Source: Escherichia phage EK8. From it: a DNA stretch of 64,000 bases. The notes below the pieces were generated by a model that saw only the letters and a program-made list of their open reading frames with translations, did not search any database and was not told the origin of the DNA. Positions within the stretch are counted from its first letter, which is position 1. Every line of letters starts with the position of its first letter. This document shows, in pieces, positions 24,060 through 62,316 of this stretch. The translations under genes were made by a program, and so were the position numbers. The DNA is taken from the sequence record PQ805430.1; one strand, written 5' to 3'.

Positions 24060-24305
24060 TCATTTAAGTTTAAAACGGAGCTTCTGGGTTCCACCCTGTT
24101 CATCGAATACGGACTGCACTTCCACTACACCCTCGTGATCCAGTACCAGTACCTTGTCAGCTTTATTGGTGAACTCACCCTCGATTTCAATGACCTTCAA
24201 GCCTAACAGCTTCTTGGTTTTGAACTCGTTCAGCTTATCTTCGGTGGTATAGATGACTCTGGTTTGTTGTGTAATATGTTGATAACCGCGAAATGGGTCG
24301 GCCAT
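24060..24305 (-). CDS. hypothetical protein
   Basis: 81-aa ORF. Confidence 0.5.
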   Translation of the reverse strand: MADPFRGYQHITQQTRVIYTTEDKLNEFKTKKLLGLKVIEIEGEFTNKADKVLVLDHEGVVEVQSVFDEQGGTQKLRFKLK

Positions 24306-24577
24306 TATTCCTCCAGGTATAGACGGATCAGCTTGTCCTCCCCGTCTTCGTAGACACTGACGCCAACCACGCCGAATACTGGCAGATTGATACGCATCCA
24401 GCCTTTCTCCAGCAGATCAGGAGTAATGCGGAACTCGGTCGGGTTAACTCCGGCCAGCATACTGGCCTTGACCGTCGAAACGAGAGAGGCGGGAACATTC
24501 AACCGGGCGACAGGCTTACCCGGTTGTGGCAGAGATTGCAGCAATTTCATAGTTACCTCGATTTGAAGGTGATGCAC
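24305..24577 (-). CDS. hypothetical protein
   Basis: 90-aa ORF. Confidence 0.5.
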   Translation of the reverse strand: MHHLQIEVTMKLLQSLPQPGKPVARLNVPASLVSTVKASMLAGVNPTEFRITPDLLEKGWMRINLPVFGVVGVSVYEDGEDKLIRLYLEE

Positions 24578-24798
24578 TTAAACGAGCCATAAACACTCTC
24601 ATACTGGATTGAGTCAGTATCTATGGGCATTAGTATGCAAGGGAATGTACGGTTAACCTCATCGATCCAGGCATTGGGTACGAGTACCTCATGATCCTTT
24701 ATACCGATGAGCATTTCAGTTCTGAGTTCATCCATGATATCGCCCGGCAACCGGACTTCTACCCTGGGATCTGAACCATTGGATATGAAGACAGCCAT
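24553..24798 (-). CDS. hypothetical protein
   Basis: 81-aa ORF. Confidence 0.5.
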   Translation of the reverse strand: MAVFISNGSDPRVEVRLPGDIMDELRTEMLIGIKDHEVLVPNAWIDEVNRTFPCILMPIDTDSIQYESVYGSFKCITFKSR

Positions 24799-24997: not shown

Positions 24998-25195
24998 TTA
25001 TTTCGGATACTTCGGGTCATTTTCTTTAAGCCAGATAACATGGCGATTGAAGGTATTAACCAGACGGTTGTATTCACCACCTGTGGCGACATTAATCATA
25101 TCAATGCCACATTCGAAGCTGCATGTTAGATTAGCAATCTGGATACTGGTCTTTCTGGCTTGTCGCTTATGCCACCAGATTTTAAGAAAGAGCAT
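24998..25195 (-). CDS. hypothetical small protein
   Basis: 65 aa from internal ATG 25195, 11 nt after RNAP II large subunit stop. Confidence 0.4.
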   Translation of the reverse strand: MLFLKIWWHKRQARKTSIQIANLTCSFECGIDMINVATGGEYNRLVNTFNRHVIWLKENDPKYPK

Positions 25196-26456
25196 AGTTT
25201 GAGTTCCTGATCTTATCGCCCAGGTCGTTGCTGAGCTTCTCGTAGACACCATCGGTGGTCTGATATAACTGGTTCATGAGCATAGCCAGCATGTCGCTAT
25301 CAGCGAAGTCAGCCATGATCTCTTTGTACCAGTAACGGGTGATATCGCAGTTGTTTGCATGGCAACCAAACGCATCATGCACCGTGATAATCGGGAACGG
25401 TTTGTACGTCAGCATGTCATCAGTGATAGACAGCAGCTTGGTAACAATCCACTCCGGCAGGCACATAACGTTGCTCCAGGTCAGCAGTGGCAGGATGGAC
25501 AGGTCAGCGATGTGAGCCTTTTCCATCAAAGCCAGAGCTTCAACCAGTTCAGCATGTACAGGCAGACGGTTAGCACCGTTGGCATACATGATTTGAGCAT
25601 TGGCCAGCATCTCATTCGCAGGGTGAACGATAGCCGGATCGTAGTTACAGCGACGTTCCATCCCACGCAGGAGATAGGCGTCACAACCGTGAATGGTATT
25701 GGCAACGTTGGCACGGCCACGCTCAGTACCTTCGTTCACCTTGTATTGCAGCGTGAACGTAGCGTGGTCGAGTTCGTCTACTTCAATCCTGGTTTCCTTC
25801 GACTCCATGACTTTCATCACGGCTACGAAGCCATCCGGGAACACCAGAGTGTGATCCAGTGCGAACGGACGCCAGGACTCCAGCAGTTCATCCATTAACT
25901 GGAATGCACCCGGAGCGATGATCATCGCAGCGTTGTAGAACACGTCCAGCATTTCACCTTCACCGAATACACGCTTTGGTACGGCCTTAGAGCCATAGCC
26001 AGAGGTCATCACGGCTTGTTTCACGTCCTTACGTGGAACAGTGATGGTAGCGTGACCGGTTTCCAGCAGGAGTTTATTCATCTCTGCTGTGGTGTTGCTG
26101 TACGCATCCATACGGGAGCGAGGGTCAATCATGCCAGTGTTGTAGGCACCAGAGATGCAGCCCGTGAGGGCTGACATAATCTGGATACCAGAGCAGCAGG
26201 CATCGAAGTGAACGATATGCCCAACAGGGATACCACGGCGAGCACGGTCAATGACCATTGCAGCCTTACGGAACAGGGCAGGTTCTTCTGCCTGATCCGC
26301 GATAGCTTCGAGGTTGTTGATGTTGTTCTGGATGAACTCGATACGAGTATCGAACAGTTCTTTATCCATACCAAAGTGGTTGGCAGCATCTATACAGAGG
26401 TATTCCCAGCCAGTGAACGTCTGGAACCCGGAACCGAAATTGATAGTCTTTTGCAT
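25182..26456 (-). CDS. phage RNA polymerase II, catalytic C-terminal subunit (T7-like single-subunit RNAP, split)
   Basis: motif A FDACCSGIQIMSAL; motif B RKDVKQAVMTSGYGSK; motif C VHDAFGC, all T7 RNAP-like. Confidence 0.85.
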   Translation of the reverse strand: MQKTINFGSGFQTFTGWEYLCIDAANHFGMDKELFDTRIEFIQNNINNLEAIADQAEEPALFRKAAMVIDRARRGIPVGHIVHFDACCSGIQIMSALTGCISGAYNTGMIDPRSRMDAYSNTTAEMNKLLLETGHATITVPRKDVKQAVMTSGYGSKAVPKRVFGEGEMLDVFYNAAMIIAPGAFQLMDELLESWRPFALDHTLVFPDGFVAVMKVMESKETRIEVDELDHATFTLQYKVNEGTERGRANVANTIHGCDAYLLRGMERRCNYDPAIVHPANEMLANAQIMYANGANRLPVHAELVEALALMEKAHIADLSILPLLTWSNVMCLPEWIVTKLLSITDDMLTYKPFPIITVHDAFGCHANNCDITRYWYKEIMADFADSDMLAMLMNQLYQTTDGVYEKLSNDLGDKIRNSNYALS

Positions 26457-26466
26457 AAGTTAATCC

Positions 26467-27468
26467 TCATTTTCTGAATTTATCAGGTACACCAATTACC
26501 GGCTCTTGATCGGCCAGGTTAATCATTGCTTTTTTGAAGCTGGTGCCCTGTGGGGTGATATGGTAGCCACAAGCGTACATGCGCCCGCGTTTGTCTACCT
26601 TGTTGCTGATATAGAACCGGTTACCCTGGTTCACCATCAGGCTGTAGAAGTAGTAGGACTGCTCCTTATAGGATGCCCAGTTCTCCTTCTGTTTGCGGAT
26701 CATATCCGCTATCTGCCAGTCACTGAGATCCTCATCAGACTCAATGCTATCCAGATCGTGAGTTGGTTCTTCCTCCACTGAGCATAGGAACTCAACGTCC
26801 AGGGACAGAGGAACACGATTGCGTGAATTAAGTACATCAAGGCAGATGTTTCCGTCATGATGGTTGAACCCTCCACCCAGAATGAGGCTATCGCTCTTGT
26901 GGGTATAGTAGGCAGTTGAACGGTTATTCGTGAGCTTACGAGGCTCACAAACCAGTGGTGGTAAATAGCATGAATATTCAATGAAGTTGCTTAATTCTTC
27001 ACTGAACTGAATGTTACTGATTATCTGGATTGGGCTGTTACGGTGATGCTTGTTCAGGTCGAACACGTCGGTTGTAGCGAGTACAGCCAGCACCTCAGCG
27101 ATGGTCTGCACGCTATCACGTTTGTCATCGAAGCCCAGACGGGAAGCCAGTTGACCGATGGCATTGACCAGAGGCGTTTCAGCCTGGAAGTAGGTCACAC
27201 CAACGAAGATCTCTTTGACGAGATTCTCCAGGTCAAGCTGGGCTAAGTGATGCAGCCGGACAGCTTTGCTGTCGTAATACTGCTCACTCATCCACTGCTT
27301 CAATAACTCAACGCCCTGCTCCACTTCTGGCAGCAGGTTCTCGGTGCCCTCAAATAACTCCTTACGGATGTATCCGTCGATATGACGGCGATTGAACTGA
27401 CGTTCGTTTACGAGTTGTAACTCTTTTGGTGGCAACCACTTATGTTCCATAATTCCCTCTAATCTCAA
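26467..27468 (-). CDS. phage RNA polymerase II, N-terminal subunit (T7-like RNAP, split)
   Basis: DKRGRMYACGY matches T7 RNAP DWRGRVYA region; directly upstream of catalytic subunit with 10-nt gap. Confidence 0.8.
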   Translation of the reverse strand: MRLEGIMEHKWLPPKELQLVNERQFNRRHIDGYIRKELFEGTENLLPEVEQGVELLKQWMSEQYYDSKAVRLHHLAQLDLENLVKEIFVGVTYFQAETPLVNAIGQLASRLGFDDKRDSVQTIAEVLAVLATTDVFDLNKHHRNSPIQIISNIQFSEELSNFIEYSCYLPPLVCEPRKLTNNRSTAYYTHKSDSLILGGGFNHHDGNICLDVLNSRNRVPLSLDVEFLCSVEEEPTHDLDSIESDEDLSDWQIADMIRKQKENWASYKEQSYYFYSLMVNQGNRFYISNKVDKRGRMYACGYHITPQGTSFKKAMINLADQEPVIGVPDKFRK

Positions 27469-27501
27469 ATAAAGAGGCCAACCCTAAGGTTGGCCGATTG
27501 G

Positions 27502-27801
27502 TTACGCGAGTTCGAACTTTGCACCTTCCGGCGTGGCTTCGCCATACGACAGGACGATGCGGGATGCCAGCGCTTTCAGTTGTTTCTCAACGTCAGCCTC
27601 AGACTTACAGTCTTTCAGCATGTCGATGATCATCCCTTCCAGGGGATGAGACTCACGCAGGCCAATACCCTGACCACCCAGACGTTTCAGACCTTGTTTG
27701 GTCATCACGCCGATGTTCAGATAGCCAGCGATTTTGTTGCGGTTAGCATCAGCAGCAGGAGCGGAGTTGTTAGAACCAGAAGAACGACGATTGAAAGCCA
27801 T
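27502..27801 (-). CDS. hypothetical protein, possible RNAP II accessory/DNA-binding factor
   Basis: 99 aa, basic Gly-rich N-terminus; directly upstream of RNAP II genes; GAGGT RBS. Confidence 0.4.
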   Translation of the reverse strand: MAFNRRSSGSNNSAPAADANRNKIAGYLNIGVMTKQGLKRLGGQGIGLRESHPLEGMIIDMLKDCKSEADVEKQLKALASRIVLSYGEATPEGAKFELA

Positions 27802-27864: not shown

Positions 27865-27879
27865 GAGGCGCTATGCGCC
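27865..27879 (-). promoter_or_regulatory. candidate hairpin promoter (GC stem, TAT loop)
   Basis: AGGCGC-TAT-GCGCCT, ~65 nt upstream of 27801 start. Confidence 0.3.
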
Positions 27880-28230: not shown

Positions 28231-28245
28231 ACGCGCTATGCGCGT
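28231..28245 (-). promoter_or_regulatory. candidate hairpin promoter (GC stem, TAT loop)
   Basis: ACGCGC-TAT-GCGCGT, ~70 nt upstream of 28163 start. Confidence 0.3.
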
Positions 28246-28529
28246 TTTCCTTCCAGAGTGACGTAGGACATTTCAACCGTGATAGTGGAGTAGACACCCA
28301 GCAAACACTTTGTGGCTATGGCATAACGCTCATCCCTACGCAGGGTAAATGCGTAGTAAACGTTATCCTGTTTGAACTGGTAGCTCTCGTTGATATCCAG
28401 CTTCGAGGGTGTATAGGCATAGATGCTCACATCAGCTAACACCACGCCTTCAATGGCATCGGTTATCTGGTTTATATCCCAGTCGATCACTGCGGTTAAG
28501 TCTTTGGATTTATACGTATGCTCGGCCAT
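28236..28529 (-). CDS. hypothetical early protein
   Basis: 97-aa ORF. Confidence 0.45.
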   Translation of the reverse strand: MAEHTYKSKDLTAVIDWDINQITDAIEGVVLADVSIYAYTPSKLDINESYQFKQDNVYYAFTLRRDERYAIATKCLLGVYSTITVEMSYVTLEGKRA

Positions 28530-28843
28530 TACATGCCCTTAATAGTTGCCTCCACCATTGTTACCTCTGGCTTCTTGAGCATGTGATGCGTCACGTAGAC
28601 AGCCAGGATGACAAACTTGTTGTCGATACCCGGTATGGTAACGATGGTCTGAATGGTTCCACCCAGGTTATTCGGGCCTAAACTGACGTTGGCCAGGTTA
28701 ACCGGGAAGGTGTCCTTGTACACGAATTTGGGGCTTATCAGCCGCATTGTACGAAGATGATCATACTGCTCAGCACTCAGCCAGCCTATGGCTTCACCAT
28801 CGTTTACCTTACGGATTTCGTACTCACGTACCTTAGTAGTCAC
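28529..28843 (-). CDS. hypothetical early protein
   Basis: 104-aa ORF, overlapping start/stop with neighbours. Confidence 0.45.
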   Translation of the reverse strand: MTTKVREYEIRKVNDGEAIGWLSAEQYDHLRTMRLISPKFVYKDTFPVNLANVSLGPNNLGGTIQTIVTIPGIDNKFVILAVYVTHHMLKKPEVTMVEATIKGM

Positions 28844-29205
28844 TCGGCTTCTCCTGTAAGTTTCAGCGGTGGTTTATATTTCAGAAACCAGCGTGAGATG
28901 ATACGGCGATTAACCTGTGGAATTAACTCACCACGGTCTACAGCACGTCCACGCCAGTCTTCCGGGCAGTCCATAAATATGGGCTTAGGCGGATCGCCTC
29001 CGTCATACCAGTACACGATGGACGGTAGTTCGAACACCGTATCGGGAGTTATCAACGTAGTGGTACGCATGGCATCAAACTCTTCCTGAGTTATCTTGGC
29101 CTCAACGATGAGGCTAATACCATTCGGGCTTCGTTGTAATATATCCCGTAAGTAAATTGATTTTGACATTAAAAGGGTATCTCCTTGGTGAAGTTGAATA
29201 CCCAC
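28840..29205 (-). CDS. hypothetical early protein
   Basis: 121-aa ORF. Confidence 0.45.
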   Translation of the reverse strand: MGIQLHQGDTLLMSKSIYLRDILQRSPNGISLIVEAKITQEEFDAMRTTTLITPDTVFELPSIVYWYDGGDPPKPIFMDCPEDWRGRAVDRGELIPQVNRRIISRWFLKYKPPLKLTGEAE

Positions 29206-29462
29206 GTCATCGGTTGAATAACATCTTCGATACGTTCGTATTCTTCACTGGTTAAAGTATCAGGACGACCTTCGAGATATAAATCTTCGGTCACATTCAG
29301 ATAGCTGGATACACCAAAGTCAGATTTGAATGTATCTACCACTTTACGGTATACAGCGCCTTCACCTAATAAGGTTAAAGCAGTACGTATAGCATCTACT
29401 TCATTCTGGCTTAACTGACATACCACACGAGAGAACCCTCTAGATCTTAGTTCGTATCCCAT
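29169..29462 (-). CDS. hypothetical early protein
   Basis: 97-aa ORF. Confidence 0.4.
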   Translation of the reverse strand: MGYELRSRGFSRVVCQLSQNEVDAIRTALTLLGEGAVYRKVVDTFKSDFGVSSYLNVTEDLYLEGRPDTLTSEEYERIEDVIQPMTWVFNFTKEIPF

Positions 29463-29785
29463 GGTGTATTAAACCTCGCTATTAGTTGACCGTTCTTTTC
29501 AAAGTACAGGAAATTAATACGGACTGAATCCAGATATAGAAGGCTGCTATTACCGGACACTAATAAATGCGGTACAGCCAGTTCTTCTTTTTTAAAAATA
29601 GGCACATCCAGGATGCAGTCCTCCACACCTAATAAGTGTTGAGTACGCATGTTTAATATCAGATCATCATTAATCTCGAAATAACGATGACCATTATCAT
29701 TAACGCTGGTGGCACGACAATAACGTTTCATGCACCCTCCACTCGAACAAAGTGATACATTTCCTGCACCGAAGGTGTAGGCCAT
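29447..29785 (-). CDS. hypothetical early protein
   Basis: 112-aa ORF. Confidence 0.4.
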   Translation of the reverse strand: MAYTFGAGNVSLCSSGGCMKRYCRATSVNDNGHRYFEINDDLILNMRTQHLLGVEDCILDVPIFKKEELAVPHLLVSGNSSLLYLDSVRINFLYFEKNGQLIARFNTPWDTN

Positions 29786-30039
29786 TCGAACTGGGAATTA
29801 GAGCATGGCTCTAATGTAATACGTAATTCAGTACCAGGTATCTGATATTGCATATATACGTTGGTCTGGATTAAGTGAATTTGTTCGGGTTTTAATATCG
29901 TCAATGAATCACGATAATTTATCATTCGATTGCCCAACAAATAGTTGGTACGAATAACCCCAATATCCTCTTCACTTAATTTACGTGAGATCAGATAACC
30001 ATGCTGTATGGCAGCAAGTATTATCTCGTTCACTTGCAC
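29728..30039 (-). CDS. hypothetical early protein
   Basis: 103-aa ORF. Confidence 0.4.
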   Translation of the reverse strand: MQVNEIILAAIQHGYLISRKLSEEDIGVIRTNYLLGNRMINYRDSLTILKPEQIHLIQTNVYMQYQIPGTELRITLEPCSNSQFEWPTPSVQEMYHFVRVEGA

Positions 30040-32443: not shown

Positions 32444-32456
32444 CTCGCTATGCGAG
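32444..32456 (-). promoter_or_regulatory. candidate hairpin promoter (GC stem, TAT loop)
   Basis: CTCGC-TAT-GCGAG in intergenic gap, ~35-60 nt upstream of next gene start. Confidence 0.3.
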
Positions 32457-33026: not shown

Positions 33027-33122
33027 AGTATGTCTCCAATAAGTTAAGTGTATTACTTCACTTAAAGTGCTATGCACTACTACCGGTCGTAACACTACGG
33101 TACTACGTACCTACGTGTTACT

Positions 33123-33174
33123 GACTAACCAATACTTCGTACTACGCTTCGCTACGTACTCGTATTGGTTAGTC
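33123..33174. repeat. perfect 13-bp inverted repeat flanking a 26-nt TACG-rich core
   Basis: GACTAACCAATAC (33123-33135) and GTATTGGTTAGTC (33162-33174); spacer TTCGTACTACGCTTCGCTACGTACTC. Confidence 0.6.
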
Positions 33175-33202
33175 TTACATCCCTAGTTATGTATACACAT
33201 AC

Positions 33203-33384
33203 TAATAGTAAGGTTATTAGATATAAGGTAGATATGAGTTATAGATATAGGATAGGTATAGGTATAGAGATAGTAGTTGATAGGGTATAGGTAGAGATAA
33301 GTGATATAGATATAGATAAAGTAGTAGTAAGAGTAAGTAGTAACAAAGTAGTAAGTAAGTAGAGATAGTAGTAACAGGTAGATA
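33203..33384. repeat. strand-asymmetric low-complexity tract almost devoid of C on the plus strand
   Basis: ~180 nt of GTA/TAG/GATA-type units with only two C residues by manual count. Confidence 0.6.
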
Positions 33385-33461
33385 CTAAACATAAGTAAGT
33401 AGTGTTTTACTCAGTAAATACATCCTAATCTCTGTCAACCTTTTCCACTAATATAAATTTC

Positions 33462-33476
33462 CGATAAGGGTTATCG
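33462..33476 (-). promoter_or_regulatory. hairpin with 3-nt purine loop (candidate promoter/regulatory element)
   Basis: CGATAA-GGG-TTATCG upstream of leftward early unit. Confidence 0.25.
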
Positions 33477-33610
33477 ATAAAAGTGGTATAGGAAACTTAC
33501 TGTATGATTTCTGACCGTCATACCTAGCGCGAGTAAAAGCTGTAAAGTTTTGGTAACTTATAGCGCGCCTTACTGTCTCAGTGGTGAGTTGTGTAATGTG
33601 TAATTGTGTA

Positions 33611-33641
33611 GAAAAGAAATAGCCTACTCCGAAGAGTAGGC
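33611..33641 (-). terminator. rho-independent terminator (minus strand)
   Basis: 8-bp stem GCCTACTC/GAGTAGGC, CGAA loop, A-run on plus side. Confidence 0.6.
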
Positions 33642-33648
33642 ATTGATG

Positions 33649-33903
33649 TTATGCAGTAGCAGTAGCTGATGCAGCCAGAGCTTTGACTTGGTTATCAAGC
33701 TCAGACTTAGCTGCGTTGTAAATCATCTGGTCTTTGATTTCGATGAGTTCACCGAAGCGTTTAGCTTTGTTCTCTGCTACCTTAGCCAGCTCATCACCAG
33801 CAGTAGCCAGACGATTGACTGCGGTTGCAGTTGTGGTGACAGTGGATACGGTTGCAACTACAGCACCAGTGAGAGCAGCGAACAGACCTTGTGGTTGGGA
33901 CAT
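33649..33903 (-). CDS. hypothetical protein (84 aa, Ala/Thr-rich)
   Basis: stand-alone ORF with its own terminator inside the switch region. Confidence 0.45.
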   Translation of the reverse strand: MSQPQGLFAALTGAVVATVSTVTTTATAVNRLATAGDELAKVAENKAKRFGELIEIKDQMIYNAAKSELDNQVKALAASATATA

Positions 33904-34217
33904 GAGTAATACTCCATAGCTATTGGATTAATGTAAGGGATGAAGGCATCTCACCTTCAAGACTCTGAAGCCTCCCACATCGCAGAGCTACGATTGTGGG
34001 TGCATACATGTGATTAATCTCAAGCAGACAATGTATGAAAACACTGAATGAGATGGATACGTATATCCATATGATGGCCTATGGCCTGAATTGTGTAAGG
34101 CGTAGTAAGAATCCTTTTTCAGCCAGCACTATGGAGGGGGTATCCACCCAAAGCTACAGCCAGAGTAGTAAGTTGAGCACTCGTACCTAAATTAAAAAAT
34201 TTTATAAAAGTTTTCCC

Positions 34218-34418
34218 TTAAACTTTTTTATCTCTATCCAGCGGAGCTATCCTGTTTACCCACCCTTCAAACTTATCCCTGAGTTTATCCATACCGTTCC
34301 AAATACTTTCAAAGATATAAGCAAGCACTAACGCTATACCACCCACCAACCATATCACTAACCAAACTGGCAGCAGAGAGATACGGATAGCCTTGCTCTT
34401 GGTACTCATGCGATACAT
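34218..34418 (-). CDS. small membrane protein
   Basis: 66 aa; hydrophobic LLPVWLVIWLVGGIALVLAYIF. Confidence 0.4.
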   Translation of the reverse strand: MYRMSTKSKAIRISLLPVWLVIWLVGGIALVLAYIFESIWNGMDKLRDKFEGWVNRIAPLDRDKKV

Positions 34419-51225: not shown

Positions 51226-54200
51226 ATGGCAGACTCTCTGTTGTCCCAGGCTCTTAATGCTTTAAGCAACGGCGAGTTCACCAATCCTACCGAAGCTGTT
51301 TCCGTTCCGCAGGCTGCTCCCCAGCAGCCTGTCTCCAAAGATTCTCAAGTCCTTGACGCCACCCAACGTATTAATACTGGCTTTGCTGCTAAGGGCATCT
51401 ATCCGTCTATCTCTGGTGAAATCGAACGTTTAAATCAGCAAAAAGCAGGACGTGAACAAGTCGTTCAAGCATACGAAGAAGATATGCAACGTCTGGTTCC
51501 AACCAACGCTTTAGAGTCTGGTTCCCCGGTAATTCGCACCGGTGCCCAGATTACCAACGCAATGGCTGGTTTCGGCAGTTCAATTGCACGTATCGCTCTC
51601 CAGGTGAAAAACCTTAACAATCTCGGTGCTGTAGCTGCCGGGATGGACGGTGCCACCGATGAAGAAAAACTCGCCTTTAACCGTGAAGCCACTCAACGTG
51701 GTGCTGAGGCTGCTGCACTGGTAGGCAATAATGCCCGTCGTGTTCAGGATATCCTCGGCGGTGTTCCGGGTGCGTCTGCTAAGGCGATTGCCGAAGCATC
51801 TGAAATCCCGAATCAGCTTAAGGCTTACCCTTCTGATACCAACCTGCTTGACCGTGAGATTCCTCGTGGTGCAGCAAAAATTCCTTCTGCAACTCAGGAC
51901 GATTCTCTTCTGGGTTCGGTAGGTCAATACTTCAATAACCTGAATGATCGACTTGTCGGATCGGTAAATGGCATGACTGGTGAAGACCAGACCGGCCAGA
52001 CTGAATCTGTACGTGACCGACTGCAACGTGCTCAGACTGCCCTTACCCAAACTCAGAAATCCCTGGGTAACACTGCACAAGGCGTCGATAACGAATGGGG
52101 AACGGACTCCTGGGTTAACCGTGAACAAACTCAACGTATGGCTCAGCAACTGGAAGAAGAGAATAAAGATCTCTCCATCCCTGGTGCTATTGCTAACACT
52201 GTTGGGGAATATCTGGCTAACCCTTCACTGGTTATCCAATCTGCCGCAGAGTCCTTACCTTACGCACTTGGTCGTGTCGGTATCATTGCCGGTACTACCG
52301 GTCAGGCGGTACAAAACCAGACTGATGGTTACCGTGGTCAGGCAGATGGACAGCTTCCTACTGATGAGCAAATCAGTGATGTAACCCGACTCAATGCGTT
52401 GCATTCTGGTTTGAACTTTGTGGAGAACGTAGTCAATGCACGCGCTCTTACCGGTCTTAGCAATGCTGCTATCACTGCTCCACTTCGCCGTGGTGGTGAA
52501 GCACTGGCTGATACTGCCCTCGGACGAGCGATTACCAACGCTGTCGCTCGGAATGGCGTATCTCGTGCTGCTCTGGCAGCAGGGCGAGCAATTACTCCCG
52601 AACCTGTTAGGGAACTTGGCCTGACTATGGCCATTAACGGTCTGACCGAAGCTGCACAAAATCAGATCGAAACTCGCAACCTGCTCGGTGATGATCGCTG
52701 GGATACCGAAGGCAACATCAATGCTGGTGTGCTTGGTGCCCTGTCTGCTGGTGTAATGACTGGCCCATCTACTCTGGCGGCTGGTGCCGGTGCCGTAGGT
52801 GAGCGTATTGCCCGTGCTGCTCAGGAACGTCGTGACGCTGCTAACCCACAAGCTGCCGAAGCTCGTCGTGCTGCACAAGACGCTGCTAAGCCGTTTGAAG
52901 ATCTGACCAACCCGGAACATGCGGATTACAACCCGCAGGCTGCTATTCGCCAACAGACCAACGTGTTTGCTGATGAATCAACTACTCCTGAAGTACGTCA
53001 GGCTGCTATCGACCGTGCTCAGTCCGTCCGTGATTCTGCCGAACAGAACCTGGCTTCGGTTACTGATGAAGTACGCCAAATCCAGAAAGATATGGCTACC
53101 CGTCAGGAAATCGAACGTCGTCTGGAAGATATCCAGACCAACCCGGATTCTGAGTACAAAGGTAGCGAAGCTCAACTGACCACTATCCGTGACCAGATTG
53201 ATGAGCGTATGCCGGATGAAGCTGCTCAACAGGATCTGGTTTCCCGCTTCCAGGCTGCAAACGAAAACGTTGAACGTGTGCGTAGTGCCTACGATCAGTT
53301 TGAGAATGCTGCTGGTCTGCGTGAACGTCAGGCTCCAGAAGAAGCTCAGGCTCAGATGGATACTGCTACCAATCCTGATGCAACTCAGGAACAGGTTGAT
53401 ACGGCTGCTGACCATGTGGTTACGCACCCTATGCAGTACACCCCGGAACAACTCCGTACTCTGGCCGATGATACGACCAACCGTTTCAGCGACACTCAGC
53501 GTGAAGCGATTCGTAAACTGGCTGATGCCCGTGTTGCCCAGAACAACCTGAAAGATGATCTGCGTGTAAACCAGGATATTATGCAGGGTGGTAAGGGCTA
53601 CCGTTCCCTGGGTGAATACACCTCTGCTTATGCTGCTGCTATCCGTTCCGGTGATAAGACTATGGCTACCAACCTGCGTGAGCAGTTAGGTCGCTTCCAG
53701 GCTTCTCATGAACAGAAAGCTGCCGTTGCTCAGCAAATGATGGACTCTGGTAACTACGGCCAGCTTATCCGTCAGAACAGTCAGTGGGTGGCTAACGAAG
53801 GTAAGAAACTTCGTGGTAAAGATAAGACCCGTAACGGTGCTCTGGATATTCATTCTGGCTCCGGTCGTCTGGTTGCTCGTCTTCAAGAAGAAGCCGAAGC
53901 AATCCGTGCAACTTCCGCTGCCCTGGATGCAATGTCTCAGGCTCGTCCGGCTGCTCCCGCTACCGCTCCGCAGCCGTCCTCCCCTGCACCAGCGAACGAC
54001 GCAACCACAACGGTGGAGGCGAAGCCGGAACCGGCAGTGGTGGAGTCGGAAGCGACTGTTACCAAATCATCCCTCTCTCACTATGCCAATGACGGCGTAC
54101 TGACTCAGGATGCTGATGGTGATATGGCTCTGCGTCTGGATCAGTTCTCTCCGGCTGAACAACAGTTCCTGCGTGACAACAATATGGTTGATGCTCAGAA

Positions 54201-57200
54201 CATGGTTAAAGCTGCTTTCTTACGCCGTGCTGAACCGCGTAAAGATGACGCCCATAAACCACGTACTCTGAACCAGCAAGACCGCATTGCCCCGGCAGAA
54301 CAACAGACTCAGCAAGAGCAGGTACAGGCTCAGGATACCAATGAGAATGACCCTACTCCGGCCAGCACTGTAGAAACCGACACCAACGTAACTACCGATC
54401 AGACTACGGCAACGAAGACTGACGAGAACACGAAGGCAGACGGTGCTACCCGTGTCCTACGTCCAGAAGGTAAATCTCTGGAGACTGCCCGTACCGAAGA
54501 ACGAGCTAAGCCATTCTCAGAACAGAACCTTGTTCTCACTGGTTTCGTTCAGCGTGTCCGTGAAGGTTTCGTTAACCCACTGGTTACCGTTGAAAACTTC
54601 ATGTCCAGCGTTATGGATAAAGCTGACTGGTCTGGTCGCTTCACCGAAGTGAACCGTTACCTTGCTCAGCCGATGAACGCTGCCCAGAAGAATCTGGTCG
54701 GTATGTTCACCAAATTCCATAAAGCAGTGGAAGGTGATATCGATCCTGCTATTAAACAGAAGATCGGTAAAACCCGTGGTGGTCTGGATCGCTCTGCTTA
54801 TAACTACCAGGATTTTGTCCAGTTTCTTACCACTGACGGTAAACTGGATGAAAACACGAAGACGGCCCTGACCGCCTCTATGTTCACCTGGCTTGCAGAG
54901 AACGGTAACAAGCTCATCGCCACTCGTGACGATATGGCTGGCCTGTTCCATATGGATAAAGGTGAAGTACCGGTAGAGATCCATAATCGCTTCTCTGAGA
55001 TCGGTTCTTCTCAGCGTGCTGTTATCCAGTCCCTTGGCCAACGTGCTTACCAGATGCTGGGCTTCAAGGTACTGAAAGACGTTGACCCTAACCGTGCTGG
55101 ACGTATGCAGCAAGCTCTCGGCATGTACGCAATGCACGTTATGATGAAACGTGGCTACCTGGAGCAGACAACTATGACTGCTCGTGAGTACGCCGACGTT
55201 ATCACTACTGGTTTGGATCCTGAAGCTGCTCAGGCTAAACGTGCAGAGTTTGCTCGTGACTTCCTGAATGGTGAGTCCATCGATAAAGCGAAAGAGACAT
55301 TCAACTTTGTTCGTGTACCACGTAAAGAAGTAAACGGTAAACTCGTACCGGCAGATAACATTGCCCGTATCGTTGAAGCCAACAAAGGGACTTCCGGGGT
55401 TATGAGCAAGCTGTTTAGCTTTGACTCATCCCAGACTTTCCCGTTGACTAAGAAGCCAGGTAAATTCATTCAGAATACCGTAGGTGACTTTGGTCAGCAG
55501 GTTCCTTCTGAATTGGCAGAACGTCTGACTAAAGCCCAGCAACAACCGTACCGGATCAATGAGTCCCTGGTTAACGCCATGAACACGATCCGCAATGTGG
55601 ATGAAGCTGCATTGCTGCACATGATGGGTGTTCGTACTGAGACAGAAACTCCGTTCATGCACGCTCGTGACCGTATCGGGCAGCAGGCCAAAAACGACGA
55701 TATCATTCGTGCTCTGGCTAATGCTGATGAGGTAATGGGTACTCTGGATTCCATCGACCAGCAGATCTATATGCCGCTGGCAGTATGGAGTAACAACCGT
55801 GTCGGCGTAGCGTCCAACATGCTCAACCCGCAGGGGAACAAAGTTCACCGTGCAATGGTAGGCATGGAAGCACACCGTGTTGATATCCCGGTAAACCAGG
55901 CACCAATCGACGCCAACGGTAACATCACTGAGTACGGCCAGTTCTTACTGACTGTGGCTCAGGGTATGGAAGAGGCGCCGATCAAGAAACCAGGCACTAC
56001 TGATAAGATGCCTACGGTTGATAAAGTGACTGGTGGTACTTATCTGCAAGGTATGCAGGAATACCTGAAAAGTGACAGCGTTCGTGCTGGCATTAAAGCC
56101 ATGCAGAATATCGTTGAGGGTAACTCCACTCCGCGTGATATCGAAACCGTTAAGCAAACCGTTGCCGAATTTGGCATGGGGCCACACTCCTTCCAGTCAC
56201 TCCATGCACTGGCTCTGGTTAACCAGGCTCGTGAACAGGGTGCTGAAAAAGTGCAGGTTGCTATCGGTGGCGAATCAGATGGTGTCACCAACGGGCCGAT
56301 CCTTACCAATGTGCTCTATGGTACGGCAGACACTGACCTTCTCGCTCGTGGTGGCCTTTACACTGCTGACGCTGGTGTTACCAACGTACCGCAGTACCGC
56401 GAACAAGGTGGGCAGGACTACTACCAGTTATTGGGGACAGCTCAGAAGGAAGCATGGGATGCCATGTATCCTCCGACGACTGGCCGGGTAACGGATCAGA
56501 ACCAGAAGTTCCGTCGTGCAATTGATTACTTATCTCCTGGTTTCGGCTCTCGTTCGAAAGCCAAAGTACAGGCTACCCCATTCAACTACGGTTCCGGTAT
56601 GGACTCGCTCAAGCGAGCAAGTGCCAGAGACACCATTGATAGTGTCTACGGTCATATCACTGATATTGCCGAAGCCTATAGCCGTTCCAAAGTTGAGGGT
56701 GATTTTGCTCGCCATAAACTGGAGAAAGCAATCGAGATCGTACTGGCCCAGGGCAAGACGCTAGGGATTAAAGTTCCCGCATTTTCCGGCCTGGGTAAAA
56801 CGGAATCACTGTTAACCACCGAATTGCCACGTCCAATTGTGGACGCGATTATGCAGATCGATATGGCTATCCGTGGTGAAGCATCCGAGACTGCGATTGA
56901 GCGTGTTGCTGCTCACTACATCAAAACCCGTGACACTAACACTGCGATTACTAATGCAGCGTTTGAAGTGGGCAAAGTTGTACGTGACCGTGCAGAGGCT
57001 CTGGCTCTGGAACAGGCAGTTAAAGACGGGCAAGTAGGTTCCATCAACGATATCGCCGTAGAAGGCTTATCGACTGATGCAAAAGCTAACCTGTCTGAAC
57101 AACTGCGTGAAGCCAGTGCTATCGTCCCTACCGCTACCGGATCCCTTTCCAAAAATAAACTGGAATCAGGTTACGTGGCTGCTAAGGTCGGTACTACCTT

Positions 57201-60200
57201 CAAAACCAATGACCCAACCACCGAGGTATATGCCTCGTTCCGTGAGGGTGCTAACCCTACTGGTACTGGCTTAACCAACACCAAACCGACGACCTTTAAG
57301 GACGTAAGATCTGGCGCTCAGGTTAAAGAACAGATCGCTCCGGGTGTGTCTACAAGTGCATTGGTTGTGCAGGGTACTGATGCTGCAATCTCAACTCGTG
57401 TTATCGCTGAGCGTCCGGCTCAGAACTTCCATGATGCGAACCTGTTCGCTATTACGGATATGATTGAAGGTGCCAAAGCGCAGAACAAAGCCATGTGGGA
57501 TACAGTGGTCGGTTATGACTCTCAGTTAGCGAATACCGAAGCATTAATCCGCACCCTAGAAGGTGTTACCCAACAAGACGGATTAACGTCACTGGATTGG
57601 ATTAATATTGCCGGGTCTTTGCAACAACTGGCTTTCAAGGCTGAACTAATTGGATCCCCTAAAGAGTCCGTATCGGCGGTAGCCGTACTTGGACGGGTAG
57701 TCGGTGATGCTTATAACCGTGAGATTGCCAAGCTCAACACACTCAACGAAGTTGAGTATGTAAACCAGTATGGTTATGAGGGTGGTGAATACCAGGTTAC
57801 TGCTGCCGACCGTAAAGCTCTGGCTGACAAAATTGACTCTCTACGCATATCACGGGATAAAGCGGTTGATAAGGCAATGACTCTTGGCGGTGAACTAAAT
57901 ACCCTGCTACAGCAAGGTACAACCACATCCAAGCGTAAAGCCGATGCTGTTAATGCTGCTCAACGCCGTCAGGCTATTGAACAAGCTGCTGCTGATAGCG
58001 TACCGGTTACCCGTGATGCCAAAGGCAAGAACGCTCTTGAGCGTTTCCTGACTGAAAGCAAAGACGGCACCGTTAATGCTAAAGACCTGATGAACTTTAC
58101 CGTTAAGTCCCTGGCTTCCGGTCGTACTGATGGTTCAGCACTGCAAAGCCGTATGCGTACCACTTACAGCGAACTTGCTAAAGTGCTCGCAGCGACTCTG
58201 CCGGAAAACCTGACCGTTAATATCCTGTCTGCTCAACATAATCCAAAAGGGGTTATGGGTGCTGAGCAGAACGTTAACTCACGAGCATGGTTTTATAGTG
58301 ACGGTAAGGTAAACCAGATCAACATCAAGATGGATGGCCCGGAAGCACCGGGGCTGGAAGTTGTGCTGCATGAAATGCTTCACGCTGCCACTGCCCGTGC
58401 TCTGGATGCTGCTCGCCGTGATCCTAAAGCTAACCCGGCTCTGACCGAAATCGTTGGCCGACTGGAATCACTGCGTAGCGAGATCGAACAGTCCGTACAG
58501 AGTATGCCTCAGTTTGCACCGGCAGTCCGTAACGTGGACGAGTTAATCTCGTGGGGTATGACTAATCCGGCATTTCAGCAACATCTTGATGGTTTGCAGT
58601 CCTCCATGTACCCACGTCAACGCGAAGGTGTACGTGGTCGTCTGGGTTCCATGTTTAAACAGTTTGCCAACACTGTGCTGCGTGCGGTCTACGCCTTTAC
58701 TGGTCGTAAGCCTTCCGCTAAACAGATGACGGCAATGGAAGCCCTAATTCTGGATACTGCTGACGTACTCCAGACTGCCACGGTTAATCCGGGCAATGCT
58801 GGTAACGTTAATCTGGCAATGGCCTCATCTACCCGTGCAGCACAAACTGCCGGACAGTACACCCATCGCCAGATATTCGATGCTCTGTCGTCCTCGACTG
58901 CTGGTAAGCGGAACACTTCTGCCTTTACCGGAAATCTGGGTAAGATCATCGAAAATGTATCGGATAAACTGTTTAGTCAAATTGGTGGTGATCACCTGAC
59001 CAACCTTCCGGCAGGTCACGGTTATACACCGGGCCAGGTATGGGCGAATGCTCTTACCGGGGGCAAGGCACCGTTCACTACCAAAGCATTGGCTGCTGGT
59101 TTCCACATGACTGACCAGGAAGCATTCGCTATCGAGTCCATTGAGACTGCGGTTGCTGCTGCTCTGGATTCTGGTTTCGGTACTGCTGTGAACCGTGAGA
59201 TCCGTAAATCCTGGGAAGCTGCCCGTAAGCAGGTAACCCCGGAACAGTTCCATAACGGTAACTGGAATACGGCTACCCCGGCAGAGAAAGCTGCTGCACA
59301 AGCAAAGTGGGATCACCTGTTCAAACTGGAAGCCAGCCAGAACGGTAAGAACCGCTACCTCGCACAGTTTGTGGCAATGACTCTGGGTCATGAAGAAACC
59401 AGTAAACTGATGGGCTTCACCAATGAAGTTGCCGATGCTAACGCTCCGGTCACTCCGTTCGAGAAAGCTGCTGCCTTCTTTAACCATTCGGTTAACTGGG
59501 CATCGGGTTACCTGACTCGCACCAACAATGGCCAACTGGTAAACCAGAAGGCTCAGGCACTGGCTCAACAGTTGATTGAAATCGACTTGAAGAACCGTGA
59601 CAAATCCGTTGATGCACTTGAGAAAGCGTTTATCTACGTCAGCGATCTGGGTGAGAAAGCTGGTAATAAAATCTGGGATGCTGCTCATGCAACTGCTGAT
59701 GCGAAACTGATTCGTGAGAACCCTCTCGGTATCGTTCGTATGGCCGGGTCTATTACCCGTCTGGCTGCTAAGCGTAATCTGGATGTGCTGAGCGATACCA
59801 TTCGTCAGGTACGTGATATGAATAACCCGAATACCGCTGATGGTTGGGCTGCTCAAATCCTGTCTGATATCGCTAACCCGGATAAAGTACGTAGTGCGTT
59901 CGAATCGCTGCAACGACACACGAACCTCATTGAACAACGTCGCCGTAATTTCGCAGAAATTACTCGTGGCAACGTGATGGGAGCGTTCGAAAATAACGGT
60001 GAGTATCTGACCAACGAAGATAAAACTGCGTTGTCTTATACCCTGCTGCGAACCGAAGCACACTCACTGCTCAATACCCGCTCCCTGGATGACGTTCAGC
60101 AACTGGTTTCCAGCAAAGCTAAACGTAATGCAGAGATTCGTAATCTGGAGCAAATCGTATTGGCAGATCCGAATGGTAATGATATGGTTATCCGCGCTAA

Positions 60201-62316
60201 AGCACTCGGCTATTATATGGTGACTGGGAAACCAACTGATGTAGGTTTAGCTAAGAATGCACAAGCCATTGCTTCTGGAGCTGGTACTCACTACGTCACG
60301 ACTGGTTTAGCAGACCGCAATGGTGCCCTGACAGAGGCAATAGATCAACTGGCTACTCTGTACGCCATAGACTACTCAAAACCAGAGCATTTATCGGCTA
60401 CTGCTGCCGTCATGAAACGTGAGATGGCTAACCCTTACAATGGCATTAAAGCGTTGCTGAATGTGCATAAAGTGCTGGCCGAGGACGCAGCCTCTACCCT
60501 GTTCCAGGATAACGAGATCTCCCGGATTAAAGGCTACGTTCCAGAGGTAACCAACCCTTATCGTGATGTGAAGATTGTTGAAGAGGGTGACCGTGCTCAA
60601 CGTTCAGAGCTTGAGGCAATGGGGTATCAGTTTGTAGGCATGGTGCCGACTGATCCGACTATCCCAAGCATGGGCAAGAAAGCAATGTACGCCACTAAGG
60701 ACAACGGCTCTCAACGTTACGTGTCTGGTGCTGTGAGCTTAACCAGCAATCAACGTAAAGGTTCGTCGGCTATCCGTAACCAGAACTACCGCAAAGGGCA
60801 AGGCCCGACTGTGGCCGATGGCAGCAAAGCTGTGTATGCCGCTGCTCGTCGCCGTGCTCAAATGAGTTATAAAGACTTTGACCCTACTCAGGTTAAAGAT
60901 ACTTATATGATTCCGGTGTTCGGAACTGATGGCCGTATTATGGACTTCCAGTACGAGATGAATGCCACTAACCGTGACACTCTGCTGGATCGTAACAATG
61001 ACTTTGCACACCTGCTGGGTCAGTACGCAGGGCAGAACTTCGATAAGCTGCATAGCCCGACTCAGAACCGAGTCATTATGGAAGCTTTACACGAAGACTA
61101 CCGATCCAACTACGCTGCCAATCCAGAGCGTTACGTTGCAATTGGGCCACAAGTTGCTGATGCCCGCTCCAGAGAAATCTGGGCTATGCTGCCGCAACAG
61201 ACCCGTTACGACGCTGAATCAATCTGGGGTGCAGGCGAACCTATGCAGGTACGCAGTGATCTGGTCAACCTCGTGTTCGGTTTCCGTAAGCTGACAGTGG
61301 CGAATGCCTTTGATAAGGATGCCCAGGATCGCAATATGGCCGAGTCTTTAGCGACCTCCGTTTTCAACACTCTGGGCCTCCTGACCAATTCCAACGGGAA
61401 AGTCATGGCTGCTCAGACTGAACGTGGTGTTCAAGGGGGTGTTGAACTACTGAAAGATATTATCGTGATCCGTAACGTCACCACTTTGATGCGCAACCTA
61501 GTGGGTAATGCAGCATTGCTGAAAGCCTATGGCGTGTCTCCGACTGATATTGTGAAGGACACCAAGACTGCTTTACAGGCTGGTTTGAGCTACCGCAAAA
61601 ACACTGCACTGCTGCTGAAATACCAACAGCAACAACGTGCAGGTATCGGTAACTACGAACAGCTTGAGCAGAAGATCATTCAACTGGAAGACCAGCTTGC
61701 TCGTAACCCGATCAAGGACTTCATCGAAGCCGGTACTATGCCGAGCATAGTTGATGATGTAGATACTTCTGATACTGCGTATACTTTTACGTCAGGCTTA
61801 CAGCAGAAGATCTCTGGTGTGACTGATAAAATCCCGGCATCTGTACGGACGGCGGCTAAGTGGGCGTTTGTGACTAAAGACACACCGCTTTACAAATTCC
61901 TGTCCAATACCGCTCAGTTCGGTGACTTTACGTCGAAATATGTGCTGTACAAATACAGTATGAATAAGGCGGATACTAAACTGAACCACGCAGAAGCGGT
62001 ACAGCGTGCAACCGATGCGTTCGTTAACTACGACCTGCCGACTTCGCCAGAGTTGCAGTATATGAACGACATGGGTTTGTTCATGTTTACGAAGTATCGT
62101 CTGCGGATCCAGCGTGCAATGCTGACCCTGATGAAGGAACGTCCGGGCACTGCACTGGCTCAATCCGTACTGGTGTCGCGCTTTACCGATGCACCTCCGG
62201 CACTGGAGCCTAACTTAATTACTGGTTTGGGTAATCCGTTCTCATCCGGCGTATTGCAGTTGCCGAATGCACTGACCCAGCCGATGCCGATTAAGTTAAT
62301 CCTCGGATCGCTGTAA
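51226..62316 (+). CDS. virion-encapsidated RNA polymerase (N4 vRNAP-like giant protein)
   Basis: uninterrupted 3696-aa ORF; size and position at end of late structural unit match N4 gp50; catalytic motifs not mapped by eye. Confidence 0.8.
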   Translation: MADSLLSQALNALSNGEFTNPTEAVSVPQAAPQQPVSKDSQVLDATQRINTGFAAKGIYPSISGEIERLNQQKAGREQVVQAYEEDMQRLVPTNALESGSPVIRTGAQITNAMAGFGSSIARIALQVKNLNNLGAVAAGMDGATDEEKLAFNREATQRGAEAAALVGNNARRVQDILGGVPGASAKAIAEASEIPNQLKAYPSDTNLLDREIPRGAAKIPSATQDDSLLGSVGQYFNNLNDRLVGSVNGMTGEDQTGQTESVRDRLQRAQTALTQTQKSLGNTAQGVDNEWGTDSWVNREQTQRMAQQLEEENKDLSIPGAIANTVGEYLANPSLVIQSAAESLPYALGRVGIIAGTTGQAVQNQTDGYRGQADGQLPTDEQISDVTRLNALHSGLNFVENVVNARALTGLSNAAITAPLRRGGEALADTALGRAITNAVARNGVSRAALAAGRAITPEPVRELGLTMAINGLTEAAQNQIETRNLLGDDRWDTEGNINAGVLGALSAGVMTGPSTLAAGAGAVGERIARAAQERRDAANPQAAEARRAAQDAAKPFEDLTNPEHADYNPQAAIRQQTNVFADESTTPEVRQAAIDRAQSVRDSAEQNLASVTDEVRQIQKDMATRQEIERRLEDIQTNPDSEYKGSEAQLTTIRDQIDERMPDEAAQQDLVSRFQAANENVERVRSAYDQFENAAGLRERQAPEEAQAQMDTATNPDATQEQVDTAADHVVTHPMQYTPEQLRTLADDTTNRFSDTQREAIRKLADARVAQNNLKDDLRVNQDIMQGGKGYRSLGEYTSAYAAAIRSGDKTMATNLREQLGRFQASHEQKAAVAQQMMDSGNYGQLIRQNSQWVANEGKKLRGKDKTRNGALDIHSGSGRLVARLQEEAEAIRATSAALDAMSQARPAAPATAPQPSSPAPANDATTTVEAKPEPAVVESEATVTKSSLSHYANDGVLTQDADGDMALRLDQFSPAEQQFLRDNNMVDAQNMVKAAFLRRAEPRKDDAHKPRTLNQQDRIAPAEQQTQQEQVQAQDTNENDPTPASTVETDTNVTTDQTTATKTDENTKADGATRVLRPEGKSLETARTEERAKPFSEQNLVLTGFVQRVREGFVNPLVTVENFMSSVMDKADWSGRFTEVNRYLAQPMNAAQKNLVGMFTKFHKAVEGDIDPAIKQKIGKTRGGLDRSAYNYQDFVQFLTTDGKLDENTKTALTASMFTWLAENGNKLIATRDDMAGLFHMDKGEVPVEIHNRFSEIGSSQRAVIQSLGQRAYQMLGFKVLKDVDPNRAGRMQQALGMYAMHVMMKRGYLEQTTMTAREYADVITTGLDPEAAQAKRAEFARDFLNGESIDKAKETFNFVRVPRKEVNGKLVPADNIARIVEANKGTSGVMSKLFSFDSSQTFPLTKKPGKFIQNTVGDFGQQVPSELAERLTKAQQQPYRINESLVNAMNTIRNVDEAALLHMMGVRTETETPFMHARDRIGQQAKNDDIIRALANADEVMGTLDSIDQQIYMPLAVWSNNRVGVASNMLNPQGNKVHRAMVGMEAHRVDIPVNQAPIDANGNITEYGQFLLTVAQGMEEAPIKKPGTTDKMPTVDKVTGGTYLQGMQEYLKSDSVRAGIKAMQNIVEGNSTPRDIETVKQTVAEFGMGPHSFQSLHALALVNQAREQGAEKVQVAIGGESDGVTNGPILTNVLYGTADTDLLARGGLYTADAGVTNVPQYREQGGQDYYQLLGTAQKEAWDAMYPPTTGRVTDQNQKFRRAIDYLSPGFGSRSKAKVQATPFNYGSGMDSLKRASARDTIDSVYGHITDIAEAYSRSKVEGDFARHKLEKAIEIVLAQGKTLGIKVPAFSGLGKTESLLTTELPRPIVDAIMQIDMAIRGEASETAIERVAAHYIKTRDTNTAITNAAFEVGKVVRDRAEALALEQAVKDGQVGSINDIAVEGLSTDAKANLSEQLREASAIVPTATGSLSKNKLESGYVAAKVGTTFKTNDPTTEVYASFREGANPTGTGLTNTKPTTFKDVRSGAQVKEQIAPGVSTSALVVQGTDAAISTRVIAERPAQNFHDANLFAITDMIEGAKAQNKAMWDTVVGYDSQLANTEALIRTLEGVTQQDGLTSLDWINIAGSLQQLAFKAELIGSPKESVSAVAVLGRVVGDAYNREIAKLNTLNEVEYVNQYGYEGGEYQVTAADRKALADKIDSLRISRDKAVDKAMTLGGELNTLLQQGTTTSKRKADAVNAAQRRQAIEQAAADSVPVTRDAKGKNALERFLTESKDGTVNAKDLMNFTVKSLASGRTDGSALQSRMRTTYSELAKVLAATLPENLTVNILSAQHNPKGVMGAEQNVNSRAWFYSDGKVNQINIKMDGPEAPGLEVVLHEMLHAATARALDAARRDPKANPALTEIVGRLESLRSEIEQSVQSMPQFAPAVRNVDELISWGMTNPAFQQHLDGLQSSMYPRQREGVRGRLGSMFKQFANTVLRAVYAFTGRKPSAKQMTAMEALILDTADVLQTATVNPGNAGNVNLAMASSTRAAQTAGQYTHRQIFDALSSSTAGKRNTSAFTGNLGKIIENVSDKLFSQIGGDHLTNLPAGHGYTPGQVWANALTGGKAPFTTKALAAGFHMTDQEAFAIESIETAVAAALDSGFGTAVNREIRKSWEAARKQVTPEQFHNGNWNTATPAEKAAAQAKWDHLFKLEASQNGKNRYLAQFVAMTLGHEETSKLMGFTNEVADANAPVTPFEKAAAFFNHSVNWASGYLTRTNNGQLVNQKAQALAQQLIEIDLKNRDKSVDALEKAFIYVSDLGEKAGNKIWDAAHATADAKLIRENPLGIVRMAGSITRLAAKRNLDVLSDTIRQVRDMNNPNTADGWAAQILSDIANPDKVRSAFESLQRHTNLIEQRRRNFAEITRGNVMGAFENNGEYLTNEDKTALSYTLLRTEAHSLLNTRSLDDVQQLVSSKAKRNAEIRNLEQIVLADPNGNDMVIRAKALGYYMVTGKPTDVGLAKNAQAIASGAGTHYVTTGLADRNGALTEAIDQLATLYAIDYSKPEHLSATAAVMKREMANPYNGIKALLNVHKVLAEDAASTLFQDNEISRIKGYVPEVTNPYRDVKIVEEGDRAQRSELEAMGYQFVGMVPTDPTIPSMGKKAMYATKDNGSQRYVSGAVSLTSNQRKGSSAIRNQNYRKGQGPTVADGSKAVYAAARRRAQMSYKDFDPTQVKDTYMIPVFGTDGRIMDFQYEMNATNRDTLLDRNNDFAHLLGQYAGQNFDKLHSPTQNRVIMEALHEDYRSNYAANPERYVAIGPQVADARSREIWAMLPQQTRYDAESIWGAGEPMQVRSDLVNLVFGFRKLTVANAFDKDAQDRNMAESLATSVFNTLGLLTNSNGKVMAAQTERGVQGGVELLKDIIVIRNVTTLMRNLVGNAALLKAYGVSPTDIVKDTKTALQAGLSYRKNTALLLKYQQQQRAGIGNYEQLEQKIIQLEDQLARNPIKDFIEAGTMPSIVDDVDTSDTAYTFTSGLQQKISGVTDKIPASVRTAAKWAFVTKDTPLYKFLSNTAQFGDFTSKYVLYKYSMNKADTKLNHAEAVQRATDAFVNYDLPTSPELQYMNDMGLFMFTKYRLRIQRAMLTLMKERPGTALAQSVLVSRFTDAPPALEPNLITGLGNPFSSGVLQLPNALTQPMPIKLILGSL

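Follow-up and report, generated by a model that had tools for sequence, protein, structure and literature searches.

The stretch of Escherichia phage EK8 DNA analysed here (sequence record PQ805430.1; 64,000 nucleotides (nt), hereafter the window) raises the question of whether an RNA polymerase (RNAP) of the T7 type is encoded between positions 25182 and 27468 as two separate genes, and whether the small gene just upstream of them serves that polymerase. The answer reached below is that the region is very probably the middle-gene transcription machinery of a Cbunavirus N4-like phage, comprising the two-subunit polymerase RNAPII and a small protein of the Drc family. The observation is real and its reading correct, and it is not new, with the RNAPII pair and Drc homologs already published for the Cbunavirus/CB1-like clade (PMC6027278, PMC7145618), including the heterodimeric RNAP of CB1-like phages (PMC6027278). 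The polymerase genes and the junction between them are as follows:

26467..27450, minus strand: RNAP1, the small subunit of RNAPII, 327 amino acids (aa), with a truncated N-terminal domain, the thumb and the DxxGR block (D286, R290).
25182..26456, minus strand: RNAP2, the large catalytic subunit of RNAPII, 424 aa from an ATG, with palm and fingers, motifs A, B and C and a C-terminal YALS foot.
26457..26469, minus strand: the inter-subunit junction, made up of the TGA of RNAP1 (26469..26467), a 10-nt spacer and a GAGGA Shine-Dalgarno.

The preliminary description had proposed a T7-type RNAP encoded by two consecutive genes 10 nt apart, and both minus-strand open reading frames (ORFs) are present and homologous to T7 RNAP. 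The longest ORF for RNAP1 opens at TTG 27468 and stops at 26467, and it was at 27468 that the small gene had been taken to begin. The gene stands but this start does not; the true start is almost certainly ATG 27450, since GAGGG lies 5 nt upstream of it and the 327-aa protein read from it aligns gap-free over its whole length with the 327-aa protein annotated in Kosakonia phage Kc283. The spacer between the two genes is exactly 10 nt (26457..26466) and their frames differ, with the junction reading AAA TGA ggattaactt ATG and the GAGGA Shine-Dalgarno (26468..26464) overlapping the TGA of RNAP1. Three-frame translation places a TAA in the RNAP2 frame two codons ahead of its ATG. Each RNAPII gene has its own Shine-Dalgarno and ATG. 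RNAP1 and RNAP2 are translated separately, and their translation is probably coupled because the second Shine-Dalgarno overlaps the upstream stop. An identical GAAATGAGGATTAACTTATG junction is present in Kc283, and it also forms the 3′ end of an inserted endonuclease gene in Pectobacterium phages Horatius and phiA41 (see below).

As had been read from the translations, the small gene holds DKRGR and the large gene motifs A, B and C, and this agrees with alignment to the catalytic residues of T7 RNAP. In a four-way alignment D286 and R290 of the RNAP1 DKRGR align with T7 D421 and R425, while in RNAP2 D85 of motif A (FDACCSGIQ) corresponds to T7 D537, R142, K146, Y154 and G155 of motif B to T7 R627, K631, Y639 and G640, H256 to T7 H784 and H360-D361 of motif C to T7 H811/D812. 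The DxxGR block and motifs A, B and C are collinear with T7 RNAP, with all of the catalytic residues and the C-terminal foot kept. RNAP1 is 31% identical to N4 gp15 (E=1e-29) and matches chain A of the N4 RNAPII structure (PDB 6DT7_A, E=1.6e-24) and phrog_2166 (E=3e-117), with no match in Pfam. RNAP2 is 33% identical to N4 gp16 over its full length (E=1e-63) and matches PDB 6DT7_B (E=1.8e-55), the next matches being mitochondrial and T7 RNAPs; its PHROG is phrog_2051, and the Pfam family RNA_pol (PF00940) scores 70.3 bits (cutoff 22, E=1.8e-19) across the N-terminal 145 residues only. Judged by these alignments, the similarity to the N4 subunits is homology and not chance. Higher identities were obtained with LUZ7, both over full length, RNAP1 being 42% identical to LUZ7 gp20 with the alignment running from residue 1 and RNAP2 41% identical to LUZ7 gp22. 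On these values, set against the 31%/33% for N4, the closest characterised system is LUZ7 together with the CB1-like phages and not N4.

Pairwise alignment to T7 RNAP and to N4 gp15 and gp16 gives homology for both subunits and the same break, with the RNAP1 alignment to T7 RNAP ending at about residue 452 and that of RNAP2 beginning at about 456. The four-way alignment maps the break to T7 residue 452 here as against T7 453/454 in N4. A probe spanning the junction is split into two matches in N4-like genomes and matches T7-like genomes as a single in-frame piece. Variant break positions, read from the lengths of PHROG profiles and from single-piece tblastn matches in phages of ~78 kb, were considered and rejected: Vibrio D491 has the usual break plus a 105-aa ORF, and the single tblastn piece in the ~78-kb phages is a low-scoring extension.

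The genome around the locus is in keeping with this arrangement. The region matches Cbunavirus phages, namely Kosakonia phage Kc283 and Pectobacterium phages CB1, CB3, CB4, Horatius, Possum, Nepra and phiA41, at 80-83% nucleotide identity, and a 24.6-kb stretch of the structural region is ~83% identical across ~95% of its length. A giant virion RNAP is a hallmark of N4-like phages, and the window carries a gene for one:

51226..62316, plus strand: virion RNA polymerase, 3,696 aa, matching phrog_2206 with 2,581 bits over residues 84-3692.

Because of the Cbunavirus nucleotide matches and the virion RNAP gene, the window is assigned on sequence grounds to a Cbunavirus-like phage of an undescribed species. 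In its relatives these two genes are already annotated, under the names RNAP1 and RNAP2 or as small and large subunit of RNA polymerase. The N4 RNAP II arrangement put forward in the preliminary description is thereby borne out, both by the break at about T7 452, which is that of gp15/gp16, and by an N4-like genome encoding a 3,696-aa virion RNAP.

The small gene upstream had been put forward as a candidate accessory factor, a role that is now supported by its placement in the Drc family on the basis of profile, predicted fold and key residues:

27502..27801, minus strand: Drc-family putative RNAPII cofactor binding single-stranded DNA (ssDNA), 99 aa, isoelectric point (pI) 9.2, with Y27 and R40 equivalent to Drc Y23 and R37.

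The protein matches phrog_6271 with E=1.3e-34, as does LUZ7 gp14 with E=5.2e-37, and a 28-sequence family profile finds the crystal structure of Drc (6QLC_A) with E=4.8e-4, aligning query residues 3-90 with chain residues 8-99. Its predicted fold is that of Drc, with a disordered N-terminus followed by beta1-beta2-alpha1-alpha2 and a swapped beta3. Y27 (GYLN) and R40 (KRLG) do not vary within the family and are matched by alignment to AY23LN and VR37L of Drc, in which Y23 is the ssDNA-binding Tyr and R37 a conserved beta-sheet Arg (PMC7145618), the Y23A substitution nearly abolishing the binding of short ssDNA oligonucleotides (PMC7145618). Both cofactors are basic proteins of 99 aa, with a pI of 9.20 in the window and 9.16 for LUZ7 Drc as against 5.20 for N4 gp2. 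In all of the relatives examined (Cbunavirus, Efbeekayvirus, SABI and LUZ7) the Drc gene lies upstream of the RNAPII genes. LUZ7 Drc binds both ssDNA and RNAPII, and its homologs in CB1-like phages were found by psiBLAST (PMC7145618, Boon et al.).

Nothing speaks against the Drc reading or the transcription scheme built on it, which have three limits. Pairwise BLASTP of the 99-aa protein against LUZ7 Drc gave no match, so the link to Drc rests on profiles and the predicted fold; Foldseek missed 6QLC; and the promoter assignments given below were made by pattern only. The protein has no Pfam domain. The C-terminal phosphate-binding R90/R95 of Drc are not kept, the window tail GEATPEGAKFELA being without Arg and having only K95; R90/R95 are not described as family-wide in Drc, and their absence is a difference and not an exclusion. 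As a separate observation, many of the Drc-like members from metagenomes (P0204, P0205, P0206, P0208, P0209 and others) are ~170-200 aa long with two tandem Drc domains, amounting to covalent 'dimers' of a protein that is homodimeric in the crystal structure.

Among the alternatives the one that fares best, though it is improbable, is that the 99-aa protein acts mainly on the host, as a toxin or host-takeover factor unrelated to RNAPII function. It draws on the annotation of phrog_6271 as 'toxin' in the host-takeover category and on the RefSeq 'toxin' label carried by homologs, LUZ7 gp14 included. The LUZ7 protein so labelled is Drc itself, for which binding to ssDNA and to RNAPII has been shown biochemically (PMC7145618), and therefore the label names the same family. 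The 99-aa protein retains, along with the predicted Drc fold, the Tyr and Arg that bind ssDNA, and toxicity on over-expression would be compatible with an abundant DNA-coating protein. The 'toxin' database label on the Drc family is misleading.

It is still less likely that RNAPII works here as in N4, with AT-rich promoters and the cofactors gp1 and gp2, and that a strongly diverged gp2, not a Drc, is what the 99-aa ORF encodes. The identification as N4 gp2 was ruled out by BLASTP, Pfam and tblastn. BLASTP against N4 gp2 gave E=0.06 over 17 residues with no membership, and when N4 gp1-gp17 were searched against the window by tblastn only gp15 and gp16 matched, with no homolog of gp1 or gp2. 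For the N4 gp2 family (PF26984, phrog_4099) the gp2 hidden Markov model (HMM) does rank the 99-aa ORF first of the 1,070 ORFs of the window, but with E=1. What speaks for this alternative, beside that ranking, is that the profiles of the Drc-like and gp2 families resemble each other locally in the first two strands, weakly but above chance (hhalign P=7e-4), with none of 240 column shuffles reaching the score.

The profile-profile comparisons keep aligning the same ~40-50 residues, with the pattern K-A-x-x-[YW]-L-N-I-G ... G-I-x-L, at P=2e-3 and later 7e-4, the sites compared being 27502-27801 (minus) in the window and the N4 gp2 gene at 685-1071 of the N4 region (L004). The real score was 26.7, while the column-shuffled controls (n=240) had a mean of 11.8 and a maximum of 23.6 and a reversed control scored 16.6. 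HMM cross-searches between the Drc-like and gp2 families gave E values of 1e-4 to 1e-3 within small family sets; broader Drc-like and gp2 profiles brought no improvement in score, and a predicted gp2 structure of low confidence did not retrieve Drc. In the literature Drc and gp2 are held to be unrelated families that have converged on one role. That they are instead very distant homologs is conceivable from these profile similarities but doubtful, in which case they would have in common an ssDNA-binding core of ancestral origin, an N-terminal beta-hairpin (K-A-x-x-[YFW]-L-N-[IV]-G ... G-I-x-L) in which Drc Y23 takes the place of the invariant Trp of gp2. Were this so, the RNAPII cofactor would have been inherited with the split polymerase and not acquired independently in each N4-like clade, making for a simpler story of how split T7-like polymerases depend on ssDNA-binding (SSB) cofactors.

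That an error of sequencing or assembly has cut a single T7-like RNAP gene in two, or that the pair is a recent pseudogene, has next to no likelihood. In its favour are only the shortness of the gap (10 nt) and the single chain in which T7-like phages encode this region, the junction-spanning probe finding one in-frame piece in Autographiviridae of ~40 kb. Against it, fusion would require the loss of a stop as well as a change of frame, and a TAA, a Shine-Dalgarno and an ATG of its own precede or open the downstream gene. The junction sequence is identical in Kc283, all of the N4-like relatives examined are split at the same residue, several of them with a whole gene between the halves, and the crystal structure of N4 RNAPII (6DT7) consists of two chains. 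The possibility of a frameshift or sequencing error at the junction, which had been left as a point to be checked, is accordingly excluded by the anatomy of the junction and by the split in every N4-like relative examined.

The genes found between the subunits are of several kinds. In Horatius (L002, 3818-4480) and phiA41 (L003, 2985-3647) a gene for a 220-aa AP2/HNH endonuclease lies between RNAP1 and RNAP2, the matching site in the window being 26457-26475. In both phages the inserted gene ends FRK-TGA-GGATTAACTT-ATG and RNAP1 has a new C-terminus. The conserved junction stands at the 3′ end of the inserted gene, and therefore the insertion landed within the last codons of RNAP1. Unrelated small ORFs between the subunits encode 64 aa in P184, 105 aa in Vibrio D491 and 107 aa in LUZ7. 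In N4-like phages extra genes seem to have settled repeatedly at the RNAP1/RNAP2 boundary.

With RNAPII and Drc as the preferred reading, a working model can be drawn from the mechanisms of N4 and LUZ7 (PMC4496689, PMC7145618, PMC9163698). The injected virion RNAP would transcribe the early genes, including those for Drc, RNAP1 and RNAP2, from DNA-hairpin promoters, and RNAP1 and RNAP2 would assemble into a heterodimeric T7-like RNAPII unable by itself to use double-stranded DNA. Drc, as a small, basic and dimeric ssDNA-binding protein, would be made in excess by virtue of its own hairpin promoter and of a terminator ahead of the polymerase genes; by analogy it would bind promoter DNA that is locally single-stranded and, by contact with RNAPII, recruit it to the middle promoters. 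In LUZ7 Drc is the most abundant early transcript (PMC9163698).

Sites that could fill the promoter and terminator roles of this model are present in the early region:

27867..27879, minus strand: candidate virion-RNAP early promoter hairpin, GGCGC-ATA-GCGCC, found by hairpin enumeration, 66 nt upstream of the Drc ATG.
28232..28244, minus strand: sister candidate hairpin, found by hairpin enumeration.
32444..32456, minus strand: sister candidate hairpin, found by hairpin enumeration.
27476..27495, minus strand: terminator-like hairpin GGCCAACC-TTAG-GGTTGGCC then TCTTTATTT, between Drc and RNAP1, found by a terminator scan.

The three perfect hairpins (at 27879, 28244 and 32456) share the form SSCGC-ATA-GCGSS followed by TC, in which a 5-bp stem closes a 3-nt loop, and in all three a G follows 13-14 nt after the middle of the loop. 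The early promoters published for N4 and LUZ7 have this same geometry of stem, loop and G (PMC9163698, PMC6027278). By rough arithmetic chance alone would give ~0.2 such hairpins in the 12.5-kb region, and we infer that the three are candidate early promoters of the virion RNAP, analogous to the three predicted in CB1-like phages. The hairpin between Drc and RNAP1 would act as a terminator and would favour an excess of Drc transcript, as in LUZ7. The early region contains terminator hairpins, and sigma-70-like sites are depleted there, with 11 found against 24.5 +/- 5.2 expected.

Several further observations concern the surroundings of these genes. Nine consecutive small ORFs (80-120 aa; 24060-24798 and 28236-30039, minus strand) flank the RNAPII and Drc genes and share the motif hydrophobic-x2-hydrophobic-hydrophobic-x2-hydrophobic-[RK]-T-x2-L-hydrophobic-G. 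Their overall similarity is very low, one BLAST pair reaching E=0.002, and of four that were scanned three matched different PHROGs of unknown function and one was without a match; the nine may be early-gene paralogs of one family that has diverged very far. Transcription diverges at ~33100-34450, with the early genes running leftward (minus) and the structural genes and virion RNAP rightward (plus). Because this point of divergence corresponds to the two genome ends in linear N4-like genomes, the window spans joined termini and is a circularised or concatemeric assembly, with the terminal repeat presumably collapsed. In Klebsiella phage K17alpha62 (L009, OY979417.1) the matches to the Drc-like and RNAPII genes lie under opposite-strand features that are flagged pseudo or partial, and the overlying features are annotated 'virion structural protein' and 'virion RNA polymerase'; the annotation coordinates there appear displaced relative to the sequence.

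The two-gene RNAPII with Drc is a hallmark of N4-like phages (Schitoviridae) that has already been described and structurally characterised. The value of the present analysis lies mainly in annotation, in that the window is placed as a Cbunavirus-like undescribed species, the 'toxin' label on Drc is corrected and the start of the small subunit is fixed at 27450. The weak Drc-gp2 similarity is the only thread with some research value.

Compared with T7 RNAP, RNAPII of the window has the catalytic core in common, including the invariants D537, R627, K631, Y639, H784 and D812 and the foot. The T7 enzyme is a single chain of 883 aa and that of the window totals 751 aa in two chains. In the window enzyme the N-terminal promoter-binding domain is far smaller, and ~55 additional residues are inserted ahead of motif C, an insertion that N4 shares. 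T7 RNAP requires no cofactor (PMC4496689). N4 has the same two-gene architecture, break point and distribution of motifs as the window, and both have the giant virion RNAP. N4 RNAPII is a heterodimer of gp15 and gp16, active on ssDNA only and recruited by an SSB (PMC4496689), and the same biochemistry is known for LUZ7 (PMC7145618). The differences lie in RNAP1, which is 58 aa longer in the window and has ~112 residues at its start without an N4 counterpart in the alignment, in the spacer, which is 10 nt in the window as against 47 nt in N4, and in the cofactors, gp1 and gp2 in N4, in the place of which the window has Drc.

LUZ7 has, like the window, a split polymerase with a long N-terminal domain in RNAP1. 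A longer RNAP1 N-terminal domain has been suggested to go with a different cofactor (PMC7145618), and the LUZ7-like domain of the window fits this suggestion. LUZ7 Drc (gp14, PDB 6QLC) belongs to the same PHROG and has the same predicted fold as the window protein, in which the equivalents of Y23 and R37 are kept, with ~26% identity in structural alignment. In both phages Drc lies upstream in the early region, and in LUZ7 five genes occupy the Drc-RNAP1 interval and a single gene separates RNAP1 from RNAP2.

Within Cbunavirus and its neighbours the differences are ones of gene content. In the window the Drc-RNAP1 interval (27469-27501) is just 33 nt long and holds the terminator-like hairpin, whereas a ~140-aa gene occupies it in Kc283, Horatius and phiA41 and one to four genes do so in Efbeekayvirus phages and SABI, so that lineage-specific gene loss or gain has taken place. 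The AP2/HNH gene of Horatius and phiA41 is likewise absent from the window. In Kc283 and the CB1-like phages the order of Drc, RNAP1 and RNAP2 and the junction sequence are the same as in the window, with Kc283 protein identities of 91% for RNAP1, 87% for RNAP2 and ~90% for Drc, the window being a different species-level genome from these phages with the same transcription genes in the same order.

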